A stretch of DNA of 32,000 nucleotides from Oikeobacillus pervagus (GCF_030813365.1 NZ_JAUSUC010000008.1:1-32000), one strand, 5' to 3'; counted from the first letter of the stretch, positions 1-30,812 are shown. Numbers and translations: made by a program. Notes: a model not told the origin generated them from the letters alone.

Positions 1-89
1 CTCAAATTATTGAACCGCCGTATACGGAACCGTACGTACGGTGGTGTGAGAGGGTCGAACGAATCAAAATTCCGATTCGTTCACTCTAC
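1..89 (+). mobile_element. Probable 3' terminal fragment (domain V-VI) of a group II intron, cut by the window edge
   Basis: nt 15-44 (ccgccgtat...acgtacggtgg) have the same ccgtat/acgtacgg arms as the domain V copies at 20127-20160 and 22719-22752. A 9-bp hairpin follows (gaacgaatc/gattcgttc) with an unpaired A, then a ...ctac end. It is atypical: CGC instead of AGC at the triad position and a shorter upper helix with a GAAC loop. Confidence 0.5.
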
Positions 90-186
90 TCGATTTACAC
101 CATGTTTATAAAAACAGCTAAAACTGGGCGAGTGTTTTTACAAGTGTTGCATGGAGGACACAGTTTTTCTTTATTTTGAAATAATA

Positions 187-18442: not shown

Positions 18443-18928
18443 ATGACTAAGGAATCGTTTATGATTCGGGATGTCCCTCAAAAGGACCGACCCCGTGAAC
18501 GAATGACCCAACACGGACCAGAAAGTTTGTCCAATCACGAGTTATTAGCGATTATTATACAAACAGGAACGAAAAATGAATCGGTCCTCCAATTAGCCAA
18601 TCGCCTCTTAAATCACTTCGATGGGCTAAGGTTGTTGCAGACCGCCTCTTTTGAAGAGATGACCTCTATTAAAGGAATTGGAAAAGCAAAGGCCGTGCAA
18701 ATTATGGCGGCAGTTGAATTAGGAAGGCGCATCAGCAACTTAAAATATGATGATCGTTATGTCATCCGCTCCCCAGAAGATGGCGCGAATTATATTATGA
18801 ATGATATGCGCTTCTTATCTCAGGAACACTTCGTATGTCTTTACCTCAATACCAAAAATCAAGTTATCCACAAACAAACCATTTTTATCGGCAGTCTAAA
18901 CGCATCCATCGTGCATCCACGTGAGGTT
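18443..18928 (+). CDS. radC: radC exon 1 (RadC/YsxA JAB-domain protein, residues 1-162)
   Basis: MIRDVPQKDRPRERM...HELLAIIIQTG...IKGIGKAKA (HhH)...SLNASIVHPREV. Homology stops exactly where GTGCG begins at 18929. Confidence 0.85.
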
Positions 18929-20221
18929 GTGCGCCCATAAGGGGATTTAGAAAATCTGTTCTAGCAAAGCAGTAGGGAATATCGCAATCTTTACCCTATC
19001 ATCAGCCAACTTATCCGTAAGGGAAACCGAGCGGGGAGTGTAGCATGTTGGAAAAGCCATAAGTTGTCTAGTTACCAAGGCACGACTGCATGGCGAGATG
19101 AAAATTCATAGACAAGGATGAAAGCTGAATTGCTTGAATGATAGCTCAAGGTGGATTACGGGAACCTTCAGCGGGAGGTAACGATATACGCTGTGCGAAA
19201 TGTGCATGTTTCTTAAAACACTTCGAGGAACATGAAGCGATACCATTTCGACCAACTTCTATATGGAAGAAACGAGTGAAAGTCACATCCGAAACTATGA
19301 AGTGCTATGTTTCTAAATGTCTAAATGGGGATTGCCTAAGTCAGAACGCTGTCAACACAGCTATGCATAATACCAAATAAGGTGATAAATTTCAAGCTGA
19401 AAAGCAAGAAAGATGATGCTGAATATCTGATATGGCAACGGAGCTCTCGTAGTAGTCCGAGATAGGGAAAGCCTATTACATGGCGAAGGGGAGCAGTTTA
19501 TCTCGTTTAATACAAAATTGGAAGGAGCGTGAGGCTCTGAGAAATCCAAAAGTAGTATTAAGCAATCTAACTACCAAAGCAAAAGTCGAAGCATAATGAT
19601 GACCTAGAAATTCTTCGAGCATACAATGCGGAAATTGAAGGATTATATAATTATTATCGACTAGCAAGCAATGTACATGTTCTTCAAACATTCCGACAAA
19701 CCATGATATACAGCATGATTATTATGCCAAATATAAAAGCACCGTTAGTAAAATTATTACAAAATACGGGATAAACAGGGAAATTGGTATATGATATATA
19801 ACGAAGGACGTTCCTAAAATTTCCTTTTTTACGGAACAACGAATGGAAAAAACTCGGAAATCCAAAAACAGTCAGTCGATATAATTGAAAATACGTTACT
19901 TTACGGTGGCAGAACAAGTCTCATCGAGCGCCTTTTTAGCCCAAAAGTGTGAGTGGTGTGGTGCAGAAAATGTTCCATTGGAAATGCATCATGTTAATAA
20001 ATTCAAGAACTTGAAAGGTAAGAAACGATGGGAGCAAATTATGATTGCGAGAAATCGCAAGTCGATTGCCATGTGTGTGAAATGCGATTATGACTTACGC
20101 AATGGAAAGTTAGATTGATAAATGGAAAGCCGTATACTCTGAGAGGGGTACGTACGGTTTGGAGGGGAGTTCTTGGAAACCTACTTAGGCAACTAAGCAA
20201 GGCGCTGAGTACTTACCCTAC
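18929..20221 (+). mobile_element. Group II intron 1 (RT-deleted, ORF-degenerate derivative), 1293 nt
   Basis: 5' GTGCGCC. Domain I motif aaagctgaattgcttgaat (19121-19139) is shared with intron 2. The 34-nt domain V at 20127-20160 (aAGCcgtat...GAGA loop...acgtacggttt) is present. The 3' end is taccctac. It is flanked in frame by radC exons. Confidence 0.85.
19480..20118 (+). pseudogene. Remnant of intron-encoded protein: N-terminal 38 codons, then X (maturase) and HNH fragments in different frames; RT domain absent
   Basis: 19480-19596 encodes MAKGSSLSRLIQNWKEREALRNPKVVLSNL...stop. 19604 onward encodes LEILRAYNAEIEGLYNYYRLASN, which aligns with LEILYIYNAELIGIANYYKLANN of the intron 2 IEP. AKYKSTVSKIITKYG, RTSLIERL and LAQKCEWCG...HHVNKFK...CVKCDYDLRNG each lie in a shifted frame. 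Confidence 0.8.
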
Positions 20222-20284
20222 TTCAAAGAAGCTTTCCGCCGCTCTGCCGCCTCCATTATATGTGCACATAATCACCCATCTGGT
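20222..20284 (+). CDS. radC: radC exon 2 (63-nt micro-exon, FKEAFRRSAASIICAHNHPSG)
   Basis: Translation continues RadC homology directly from ...HPREV and supplies the H-x-H part of the JAMM motif. It is bounded by the intron 1 3' end (taccctac) and the intron 2 5' GTGCG. Confidence 0.85.
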
Positions 20285-22813
20285 GTGCGCCTGCAAGGTG
20301 CGTAATTTTAGTGTTTCTTTAGAAACTAGAACTCCTTACAATGTTCTATGGTCAGCATCTTACCTTGAGGGGAAACCTATAGAGGGAACAGAGCATGATG
20401 TGAAAAGGAGAAAAGACGACAAAGCTATCTAATGTCGAGTCAGTTCTTCAGACCAAGTGATGTATGGTAAAAGCTAAACTGCTTGAATCCTAGACGAATG
20501 AGCGATGGGTGCGCCATTGTCTACGGTAGCTTATAGGCAATGAGGACAAAATGGGAGACATATCGCCAGAATGTCTACGGGTATCTCCAGAGCCCATACC
20601 ATAGTAAGGTTTGTCCTTCAATCCTCAACTAGAGGAAACCGTCGAAAGGGATACCTAACCATCACGTATCTAAAATTATGTCATAATGCAGGGATTACCT
20701 AAGTGCAAGTGCCTATTGGCTATTAGACATAAGTCTATGAAATTGGATATGGTAACGGAGTCTCCATAGTACCCAACGTTTGCTTGTAATGAGCTTAGCA
20801 GGGGGAAGGGAGACAGGTTGATGTTAACGTTAACTAGAGAGGAGTCATGAATATGACAACAAATCCATTTCGACAGTTAGACGTTATAAGGAATGCTTCT
20901 CAAAAAGGAAACATCATTACGGATTGTTATCGTCTCATGTATAACAAAGAGTTGTGGATTAAAGCATATGCAAAACTATATCCAAATGCAGGAGATTTAA
21001 AAAAGGGTACAACTGATGAAACAAAAGATGGTTTCAGTTTACAGAAAATAGATGACATCATCGAGCAATTAAAAGCTGGAACATTTCGCTTTGCACCTGT
21101 AAAAAGGGTTTATATCCCAAAATCTAATGGGAAAAAGAGACCTTTAGGAGTTCCTAACTTTAAAGATAAGATGGTACAGGAAGTTATGAGAATGATACTG
21201 GAGAATGTATATGAACCAGTATTCTCAGACAATTCCCATGGATTTAGGGAGGGCAGAAGTTGTCATACAGCACTTTCCCAAATCAAAAATACTTGGAAAG
21301 GTCTGACATGGTGTATTGTAGGAGATATTAGGGGTTTCTTCGATCATATTGACCATACTGTACTAATCAAACTTATCTCTATGAAAATCAATGACCGTCG
21401 TTTCCTGCTTCTTATTCATAATGCGCTTACTAGTGGTGTCATGGAAAATTGGACATATCAGAAAACATACAGCGGTACGCCACAAGGAGGTATTATCTCA
21501 CCTATCTTAGCTAATATCTACCTCCATGAGTTTGACTTGTTCATGGAAAAACAAATAGAGGAATTTGATATAGGAAAGGTTAGGGCGAGCAATGTCAGCT
21601 ACAAAAAAATCCGTGGGAAAATTTATACTTTATCTCGGAAAATCAAGAGACTTGATGAGAAAAACGGGCATACAAAATGGGAAAGACGAGAGGATATAGT
21701 TCTTACTATCCAAGAACTCAAAAGAAAACAAATAGAACCCCCATCAGTTGACCCAATGGATAATTATGATCAAAGAATGAAATATGTCCGTTATGCCGAT
21801 GATTTTGTAATCGGAATTGCTGGTTCTAAGGAAAGCGCATTATATATAAAGGAAATGATTAAAACTTTTCTTGAAAAGGAGCTCCACCTTGACCTAAGTG
21901 AAGAAAAAACGCTCATCACTCATTTGGAACATCCTATACCCTTTCTTGGATATGAGTTTCGAAGATGGGATGAGATAAAGGTCAAAAGAGTCAGGTATCA
22001 AAACCAAAAGCATTCATTGAAAAAGCGAACACGATCAGGTGCAATAAAGTTAGAAATCCCTGAAAAGAAAATCAAAGAATTTGCAATGAAAAATGGATAT
22101 GGAAATTTAGTCACCTTTAAAATAATACACAGAGCAAAATTAATTCACAATTCGGAGCTAGAAATATTGTATATCTATAACGCTGAGCTAATAGGAATTG
22201 CAAACTACTACAAGTTGGCGAATAACTATCATCATCTAGACAAGTTATTCTATCTAGCAGAAAGTAGTTTTATCAAAACCATTGCTAATAAACGAAGAAG
22301 TACTTCTATGAAGGTTGCATCTAGCATGAGAACTTACAAACAAGGTGTTCTGTGTTTAGCTAGGAAGGACAGACAAGGTAACGAAAGACTTCATCAATTT
22401 GTCAAACTAAAGGACTTACCTAAGCATAAAGGTGCAATTAAAGCAGATTCACCTGAAATAGATAGATTAACAAACACCATGAAATACTCAAGTAGAACAG
22501 AATTTGAACAGCGTTTATTAGCAAACAAATGCGAAGCGTGTGGTACAACAGAAGGTCAGATGGAGGTTCATCATGTCCGTAAGTTAAAGACTTGAAGAAA
22601 AAGAAACACTTAACATTTTGGACAAGAAAATGATAGAACGCAATAGAAAAACCATTGTCCTATGTTACAAATGCCATCATGACCACCATGAGAAGCAAAT
22701 TCTGATTAGTCAACTGGCGAGCCGTATACGCTGAAAGGTGTACGTACGGTTCTGAGGGGGGAATTGTGAAACCTGATTTGGAGACAGAGTAAGGCGCATG
22801 GTTCCTACCCTAC
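20285..22813 (+). mobile_element. Group II intron 2 with intron-encoded RT/maturase, 2529 nt
   Basis: 5' GTGCGCC. Candidate EBS2 gatgggtg (20504-20511) and EBS1 gccaga (20565-20570, in a hairpin loop) are complementary to the upstream exon. The IEP ORF sits in domain IV. Domain V at 22719-22752 has the gAGCcgtat...GAAA loop...acgtacggttc form. The 3' end is taccctac. Confidence 0.9.
20847..22595 (+). CDS. Group II intron reverse transcriptase/maturase (RT-X-D; C-terminal HNH endonuclease module frameshifted)
   Basis: 582 aa. RT motifs: RPLGVPNFKDKMVQE, RGFFDHIDH, GTPQGGIISPILANIYL and YVRYADDFVIG. The X domain contains YYKLANNY. The HNH start CEACG...VHHVRKLK is followed by a stop at 22593. 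The rest of the HNH module (KDLKKKKHLTFWTRK, then MIERNRKTIVLCYKCHHDHH) continues in two other frames up to 22734. Confidence 0.9.
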   Translation: MNMTTNPFRQLDVIRNASQKGNIITDCYRLMYNKELWIKAYAKLYPNAGDLKKGTTDETKDGFSLQKIDDIIEQLKAGTFRFAPVKRVYIPKSNGKKRPLGVPNFKDKMVQEVMRMILENVYEPVFSDNSHGFREGRSCHTALSQIKNTWKGLTWCIVGDIRGFFDHIDHTVLIKLISMKINDRRFLLLIHNALTSGVMENWTYQKTYSGTPQGGIISPILANIYLHEFDLFMEKQIEEFDIGKVRASNVSYKKIRGKIYTLSRKIKRLDEKNGHTKWERREDIVLTIQELKRKQIEPPSVDPMDNYDQRMKYVRYADDFVIGIAGSKESALYIKEMIKTFLEKELHLDLSEEKTLITHLEHPIPFLGYEFRRWDEIKVKRVRYQNQKHSLKKRTRSGAIKLEIPEKKIKEFAMKNGYGNLVTFKIIHRAKLIHNSELEILYIYNAELIGIANYYKLANNYHHLDKLFYLAESSFIKTIANKRRSTSMKVASSMRTYKQGVLCLARKDRQGNERLHQFVKLKDLPKHKGAIKADSPEIDRLTNTMKYSSRTEFEQRLLANKCEACGTTEGQMEVHHVRKLKT

Positions 22814-22954
22814 GACCCCGGTCCAAGCAGAGAGGACATTGAGGTGACAAAACGCTTAGTGGAGTGCGGCAAGATTATTGGAATTGATATTTTAGATCAC
22901 TTGATCATCGGGGATAACAAATACGTAAGTTTAAAAGAAAAAGGCTACTTATAA
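22814..22954 (+). CDS. radC: radC exon 3 ([46 protein letters not shown]-stop)
   Basis: It completes the JAMM motif (HNHPSG|DPGPSRED) and supplies the conserved RadC C-terminus. It is in frame with exon 2 once intron 2 is removed. Confidence 0.85.
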
Positions 22955-30699: not shown

Positions 30700-30812
30700 T
30701 TTAATGTTATTGTTTGTAGCACCCGTGCTACAACCGCTCATGAAGGGTTTACAAGATTTTGCCTTGTGCAAAACACCTGAAAATGGCGAGTCTGAGTTAT
30801 TAAGGAGGTGCA
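30700..30812 (+). promoter_or_regulatory. Structured 5' leader of rplU (ribosomal protein L21-leader-like)
   Basis: Hairpin gtagcac-ccg-gtgctac at 30714-30732. cacct (30774-30778) is complementary to the SD aggtg (30805-30809). This is the position of the L21 leader known in Bacillales. No covariance model was run. Confidence 0.4.

Follow-up and report, generated by a model that had tools for sequence, protein, structure and literature searches.

The radC gene of Oikeobacillus pervagus is interrupted by two group II introns, the first of which (intron 1) has lost the gene for its intron-encoded protein (IEP) while keeping an intact ribozyme, and we consider it probable that this intron is spliced with a paralogous IEP acting in trans, the protein of the intron in mutS being the favoured helper. 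Under the route that we propose, a mobile LtrA-class (IIA) intron would have homed to one conserved radC site in Bacillales, and in this lineage its IEP would have been inactivated when its start codon was lost and 1,199 nt with the whole reverse transcriptase (RT) region were deleted, frameshifts coming afterwards. Intron 1 would still be excised from the radC transcript by ordinary branch-point splicing, its folding aided by the RT/maturase of a same-class paralogous intron located elsewhere in the genome. The sequences show directly the anatomy and orthology of intron 1, the intactness of its RNA structure and of the exons, and that candidate helpers exist; we infer both the splicing of intron 1 and the identity of its helper protein from sequence comparisons.

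Layout and relatives of the radC introns

We analyzed a window of 32,000 nt (NZ_JAUSUC010000008.1:1-32000), in which radC is divided into three exons (Table 1). A preliminary description of this DNA had given lengths of 1293 and 2529 nt for introns 1 and 2, and both were confirmed together with the intron boundaries. Once joined, exons 1, 2, and 3 encode an intact RadC of 229 aa in which the UPF0758_N and JAB domains and the HNHPSG motif are all present (exon 1 matches PF20582 at E 3.6e-31 and PF04002 at E 7.4e-15). Intron 1 is inserted between the codons for HPREV and FKEA, and the unspliced radC frame runs into a stop after 3 intron 1 codons. The gene would be functional only with both introns removed, and automated annotation pipelines would call it broken. 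Intron 2 still encodes an IEP (20847-22595) with intact RT and X domains and a frameshifted HNH tail, and its 3' end is matched by the Rfam DV/DVI model RF00029 at 65.4 bits (cut-off 40).

Table 1 Features of the radC locus, of paralogous introns in the same genome, and of ORF-less intron 1 orthologues.
Feature	Position	Strand	Length	Description or evidence
radC exon 1	18443..18928	+	162 codons	UPF0758_N and start of RadC JAB domain
Intron 1	18929..20221	+	1293 nt	IIA/LtrA-class group II intron, IEP gene destroyed
DI hairpin with EBS1	19205..19234	+		delta A directly upstream of EBS1; covariation with exons
DII, 11-nt-receptor-like base	19333..19440	+		Consensus fold, indel map, alignments
DIII, internal GAAA hairpin	19444..19496	+		Outer stem covaries across family; single-sequence fold
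DIVa stem-loop	19524..19537	+		Buries Shine-Dalgarno GGAG; stem with compensatory changes across family
Remnant of IEP codons about 2-18	19538..19590	+		Aligned with orthologous IEP N-termini
Junction of 1,199-nt deletion	19590..19591	+		MAFFT against orthologues; Pfam domains of orthologous IEP
X/thumb and D-domain debris	19591..19884	+		7-nt and 1-nt deletions, in-frame stops
HNH (En) remnant	19885..20118	+	77-codon open frame	1-nt insertion 19933 upstream of motif
DV	20127..20160	+		AGC triad, 2-nt bulge, GAGA loop; RF00029 and fold
DVI, bulged branch-point A at 20215	20163..20219	+		RF00029 and fold
radC exon 2	20222..20284	+	63 nt, 21 codons	Terminates in HNHPSG metal-site motif
Intron 2	20285..22813	+	2529 nt	Full-length group II intron, more distant LtrA-class lineage
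radC exon 3	22814..22954	+		
mutS intron (L008)	C9:77419-79930		2512 nt	Full-length paralogue
pcrA/uvrD intron (L009)	C22:30879-33459		2581 nt	Full-length paralogue
ORF-less intron 1, G149			734 nt	
ORF-less intron 1, G030			665 nt	
ORF-less intron 1, Terrihalobacillus insolitus			735 nt	
ORF-less intron 1, Bacillus chungangensis			669 nt	
ORF-less intron 1, Gracilibacillus marinus			about 725 nt	

Intron 1 itself is a genuine group II intron and belongs to the LtrA-like (mitochondrial-like, IIA) class. Its closest relatives, at 80-85% identity, are introns occupying the same radC site (between HPREV and F-K/R-EA) in other genomes. Full-length orthologues at this identical site were found in six Bacillales genomes (G004, G065, G246, G262, G040, and G319); they measure 2.46-2.53 kb, and their IEPs of 596-623 aa are intact in G004, G065, G246, and G262, interrupted by a nonsense codon in HNH in G040, and frameshifted in G319. 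The orthologous IEP P0001 contains RVT_1, Intron_maturas2, and AI2M-like HNH domains, and the intron 1 lineage was assigned to the ML class (IIA) because this protein aligns end to end with LtrA of Ll.LtrB (5g2x, E 7e-161). In the alignments, a delta-delta' pair lies beside EBS1 in place of a separate EBS3, which is the IIA pattern; the pair is A:U for the introns of radC (site 1), mutS, and pcrA and C:G for intron 2. Within its own genome, intron 1 is nearest to the full-length introns of mutS (inserted in the motif GDFYE-MF/FDDA, the slash marking the site) and of pcrA/uvrD (DQSI/YRWRGA).

An exon-intron junction scan of one genome per species (185,579 species) returned 43 matches, all 43 of them in Bacillales, with carriers that include the B. 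cereus group, Lysinibacillus, Planococcus, Sporosarcina, Virgibacillus, Halobacillus, and Gracilibacillus. Between genomes, the host radC genes are saturated at synonymous sites while the introns remain 80-92% identical, which points to horizontal spread of the intron and suggests that the deletion in intron 1 is fairly recent. Some orthologues have themselves been enlarged: in Oceanobacillus bengalensis (O. bengalensis, L078) the intron holds a second group II intron in DIII and thus forms a twintron, and in Bacillus songklensis (L095) it reaches 4.8 kb, probably through an insertion inside it.

More generally, radC is a hot spot for introns, with four insertion sites across Bacillales (loci L058 in G319, L059 in G246, L084, and L085, besides the present window), located after HPREV, after HNHPSG, within the Pro codon that follows HNH, and after LDH. 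The HNHPSG site (20284/20285), which is that of intron 2, is occupied in at least 11 genomes, and the site-2 radC intron of G030 (L056, about 3.1 kb) contains two ORFs of 379 and 331 aa, neither of which matches an LtrA-like IEP at E 1e-10. The Pro-codon and LDH sites hold introns of a different class, matched by Rfam RF02004 at 184 and 54 bits. Elsewhere in the window, a ribosomal protein L21 leader lies at 30722-30803 (RF00559, 56.8 bits). Another group II intron family, multicopy, is found at contig ends of the assembly (window positions 13-94 and 12 further contig ends, with the same RF00029 score of 43.5 bits in 13 places); this family probably causes much of the assembly fragmentation.

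Decay of the protein and state of the ribozyme

Lesions in intron 1 were mapped in a MAFFT alignment to the introns of G262, G004, G065, and G246, with G262, the closest intact orthologue, as reference. Alignment to intron 2 and to genomic paralogues, as the preliminary description had proposed for this mapping, was also carried out, but intron 2 proved a poor comparator, its match to intron 1 at the DNA level being restricted to DV/DVI, and the deletion was placed through the orthologues. Relative to these, a 2-nt deletion after 19537 destroys the IEP start codon, which normally lies just 3' of the DIVa stem, and a larger deletion after 19590 removes IEP codons 19-418, i.e., all RT blocks (RT0-7) along with the first part of thumb/X. 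The "about 1.2 kb" with RT motifs 0-7 previously noted as missing thus amounts to exactly 1,199 nt. Three further frameshifts follow: 7 nt are missing after 19727 and 1 nt after 19850, and 1 nt has been inserted at 19933. The debris aligns with P0001 residues 419-595, and its HNH remnant is still recognized by Pfam (PF21368, E 3.3e-23), with the last catalytic/zinc His residues replaced in comparison with the orthologues.

All the peptides that the preliminary description had quoted, with the X and HNH pieces lying in three frames, were recovered: MAKGSS... (at 19480), RNPKVVLSNL (19540), KYKSTVSKIITKYG (19729), AQKCEWCG, and HHVNKFK in frame 2, LEILRAYNAE... (19604) in frame 0, and RTSLIERL (19911) in frame 1. 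Some of its details needed adjustment. The open reading frame interpreted as the first 38 IEP codons does exist, but only about the last 18 codons are derived from the IEP, the start being an upstream AUG within RNA structure. Similarly, the X segment does match the intron 2 IEP, although at residue 438 and not at about 445; in the orthologous IEP the corresponding residue is 421. With these lesions, intron 1 cannot encode an active maturase in cis and is no longer mobile.

Neither chance nor the misassembly of a full-length copy is a credible source of the short intron. The assembly is admittedly a draft of 110 contigs with many repeated group II introns, but the 1,199-nt deletion has no repeats or microhomology of note at its ends, the remnant bears four other independent lesions as well as amino-acid decay, and the genome contains no second copy of the missing segment at matching identity.

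In contrast to the protein, the ribozyme core is undecayed. Intron 1 begins with GUGCG (18929-18933) and ends in ...CUAC (20218-20221), in agreement with the consensus (5' GUGYG, 3' AY), and RF00029 matches 20125-20221 at 59.5 bits (cut-off 40) with a canonical DV/DVI fold, which bears out the earlier statement that the 5' GUGCG, DV with its GAGA loop, and the 3' end are intact. A permissive search of intron 1 with the Rfam D1-D4 models gave no match, leaving only DV/DVI, and the domain map in Table 1 is therefore a comparative fold. The consensus structure, obtained with RNAalifold from 17 family members aligned over their initial 615 nt or so, comprises 146 pairs, 93 of which show double-sided changes. 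Intron 1 keeps 142 of the 145 scorable pairs and 89 of the 93 covarying ones, and the full-length orthologues form 142-146.

At the exon boundaries, EBS1 (19220-19224) pairs with the 5' exon at 18923-18927, IBS1 being the final 6 nt of exon 1 (18923-18928). The EBS1 loop covaries with the 5' exon in G004, G030, and G319 and in the mutS, pcrA, and intron 2 copies, and the delta nucleotide covaries with the base that opens the 3' exon, as in IIA introns. This EBS1-IBS1 pairing is weak (5 bp only, with one G-U and a bulged C), as it also is in some full-length orthologues. A first EBS1 candidate, the 6-nt exon complement at about 19162-19167, was rejected for lack of covariation in the orthologues, whereas the hairpin loop at 19213-19226 does covary; an EBS2 candidate (about 19151-19157) that can pair in this genome was set aside, as its pairing is inconsistent in the orthologues.

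The DIVa stem-loop of intron 1 equals that of the orthologues and of the mutS paralogue except at the 3'-most stem base, which is C in intron 1, as it is in G004 and G262, and U in the mutS copy, and by analogy with LtrA it is expected to be the maturase anchor. The distal arm of DII contains a 43-nt insertion (19365-19407) common only to the pcrA/uvrD paralogue and missing in all nine orthologues. Including this insertion, the arm is similar to the pcrA/uvrD paralogue at 78% over positions 388-610, a likeness that suggests recombination between paralogous introns.

As a gauge of continuing selection, we compared the rates of change in the different parts of the locus, taking as invariant those positions identical in the six full-length orthologues. 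At such sites, intron 1 has changed 12 times out of 507 in the ribozyme versus 24 out of 326 in the ORF debris (Fisher p = 7.6e-4), so that changes are about three times rarer in the ribozyme. The ribozyme rate of 2.4% falls inside the 1.2-7.6% spanned by functional orthologues, and in a tree of DI (first 420 nt) the terminal branch of intron 1, 0.042, is about as long as the median of 0.038. As the deletion looks recent, given this short branch, the intactness of the ribozyme could partly reflect youth and not selection, which weakens any argument from ribozyme intactness alone. For the exons, we dropped dN/dS because synonymous sites are saturated between all compared genomes, and used instead the contrast in indel rate with the debris: 4 small indels are found in 528 nt of debris versus 0 in 690 nt of radC exons, and zero at the debris rate would have p of about 0.005.

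These rates also bear on whether intron 1 is still excised at all, the alternative being that radC is a young pseudogene. This we judge very unlikely: the loss of a cis maturase, the weak EBS1 pairing, and the recent-looking deletion would all be compatible with it, but the exons are free of stops and frameshifts where IEP debris of comparable length has accumulated four indels and several stops, the ribozyme is visibly more constrained than the debris, and radC stays intact in five other species whose copy of the intron is fully ORF-less.

ORF-less copies and candidate helper proteins

Fully ORF-less versions of radC intron 1 occur in five other genomes (Table 1), and the radC exons around them are intact in all five species. 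The initial view of intron 1 as an RT-deleted intron that keeps its ribozyme landmarks agrees with the six full-length and five ORF-less orthologues at the same site, among which the 1293-nt intron is the only intermediate form found. The deletion end-points of the five ORF-less copies are all different, and in the tree four of the five stand in separate places, three of these adjoining different full-length copies, while that of G. marinus sits on a long, unresolved branch. Because end-points differ and tree positions are separate, these are independent ORF losses, in at least five other species.

The fully ORF-less copies have long terminal branches (0.09-0.48 versus a median of 0.038), i.e., they have evolved faster, or have resided longer, than protein-coding copies. 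In G149 (L055) and Gracilibacillus marinus (L064), both radC introns are ORF-less, at about 0.7-0.9 kb each, and radC reads intact.

RT/maturases with 35-51% identity are encoded in all five genomes that have an ORF-less copy. Because Bacillales commonly carry group II IEPs, however, the co-occurrence of such proteins with ORF-less introns is weak evidence for a helper role. DIVa is kept in two of the five ORF-less orthologues and missing in the other three (G030, B. chungangensis, and G. marinus), and IEP identity is 49-51% in the DIVa-keeping pair versus 35-46% in the three DIVa-less genomes, a trend that is anecdotal. The radC intron 1 lineage may accordingly be able to splice without a DIVa-anchored maturase.

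Taken one step further, intron 1 could splice without any IEP maturase, either by self-splicing in vivo or with a host RNA chaperone. Three independent ORF-less derivatives at the radC site have no DIVa and yet are surrounded by intact radC exons, the nearest IEP in G030 is only 35-37% identical, and maturase-free splicing has been proposed for the lone ORF-less C.te.I1 of Clostridium tetani (PMC4424553). We nonetheless consider this route unlikely for the intron studied here, which itself retains DIVa unchanged; moreover, IIA introns such as Ll.LtrB require a maturase in vivo (PMC1874635), and related IEPs are present in every genome examined.

On a broader scale, we tentatively raise the possibility that the radC intron 1 lineage is a bacterial counterpart of organellar intron domestication, in which a retroelement fixed in a conserved gene would have lost its protein at least six separate times, with some copies also shedding the DIVa anchor. 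If this were true, a shared pool of maturases with relaxed specificity, or no maturase at all, would represent an emerging common splicing apparatus in free-living bacteria. The full-length, intermediate, and stripped orthologues at one site form a natural series from retroelement to splicing-only intron, which is also of interest for the specificity of LtrA-type maturases.

For intron 1 of O. pervagus, we favour splicing with a paralogous IEP in trans. The genome encodes three same-class IEPs in which RT (YADD) and X are intact, with RVT_1 and Intron_maturas2 domains, and their identity to the lost IEP is 57% for the mutS intron (C9), 49% for the pcrA/uvrD intron (C22), and 44% for intron 2. 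The preliminary description had looked for the maturase in intron 2 or elsewhere in the genome: candidates are indeed present, but the intron 2 IEP is the least similar of the three, and the likely ranking of helpers would place the mutS-intron protein first, the pcrA/uvrD-intron protein second, and the intron 2 protein last. It counts against trans-maturation that even the best candidate is only 57% identical to the lost protein, as maturases of the LtrA type often serve one intron specifically. Trans-maturation, with the mutS-intron IEP as best candidate, is favoured because the mutS intron shares DIVa with intron 1 apart from one stem base, because DIVa is the main binding site of LtrA on its intron and LtrA given in trans allows delta-ORF Ll.LtrB to splice (PMC1874635), and because there are precedents for service by related IEPs among natural ORF-less bacterial introns (PMC2882425, PMC4424553). 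The DIVa of the pcrA intron is also close to that of intron 1, and the one in intron 2 differs in both sequence and design.

A group II IEP tends to act close to where it is made, which counts for the intron 2 protein as the specific helper, encoded on the same pre-mRNA only 63 nt away. Its RT and X are intact, its message would be the same RNA in which intron 1 lies, and four genomes with an ORF-less intron 1 (G030, G149, T. insolitus, and G. marinus) also have intron 2. Against this stand its lowest similarity among the candidates, its different DIVa, and a ribozyme match confined to DV/DVI, so that we regard this choice of helper as improbable. Intron 2 was likewise rejected as a general donor, since ORF-less intron 1 copies do not always lie beside an IEP-bearing intron 2: B. 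chungangensis has no intron 2 at all, and in G149 and G. marinus that intron, too, has no ORF.

A separate pattern concerns the HNH domain, which is disabled in all three full-length LtrA-class introns of this genome while RT and X remain open. The mutS copy has a TAA before HNH and a TAG at a Trp codon, the pcrA copy a TGA at the same Trp codon, and intron 2 one or more frameshifts (window 22586-22740); in the orthologues of G040 and G319, too, the En part alone is broken. Across these introns, this looks like a repeated and selective loss of the DNA-cutting domain.

Comparison with known systems

The intron O.i.I2 of Oceanobacillus iheyensis was reportedly described by Simon et al. in 2008. 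This radC intron with its degenerate ML-class IEP is cited as the sole example of IEP degeneration among bacteria (PMC4424553). It resembles intron 1 in being a chromosomal ML-class group II intron of Bacillales located in radC whose IEP is devoid of RT motifs, but its ORF remains open and presumably retains cis maturase activity (PMC4424553), whereas that of intron 1 is destroyed. Because of this destruction, intron 1 is more decayed than O.i.I2, and it is less decayed than classic ORF-less introns. Overall, ORF-less or IEP-degenerate group II introns are described as rare in bacteria and rarer still inside conserved chromosomal genes, and the ORF-less ones as sharing their genomes with related IEPs (PMC4424553).

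The delta-ORF Ll.LtrB of Lactococcus lactis, spliced with LtrA in trans, parallels intron 1 in its IIA/LtrA class, a DIVa with Shine-Dalgarno sequence, the removal of the DIV ORF, and an intact ribozyme (PMC1874635). That construct was engineered and is served by its cognate protein, whereas the deletion in intron 1 is natural and only paralogues 44-57% identical to the lost protein are at hand. Group II introns of the B. cereus group reside in radC, mutS, uvrD/rep, and polC (Tourasse & Kolsto 2008, PMC2504315), and the mutS, pcrA/uvrD, and radC introns reported here occupy the same set of DNA-repair genes; that group also carries the orthologous radC intron. The B. cereus-group copies are, however, described as ORF-containing, and the RT-deleted form is unreported in PMC2504315.

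Finally, the Thermosynechococcus TeI3 family (PMC2882425) and the Trichodesmium introns (cited in PMC4424553 and PMC2504315) share with intron 1 an internal deletion in DIV, N- and C-terminal remnants, and related IEP-bearing introns in the genome. Unlike intron 1, which is single-copy and fixed in a conserved gene, these are IIB/CL-type introns that are multicopy and still mobile; intron 1 also differs from them in keeping about 530 nt of X/En debris, an intermediate stage. The kind of decay seen in intron 1 is thus already known, and what this intron adds is a rare half-way stage of it.
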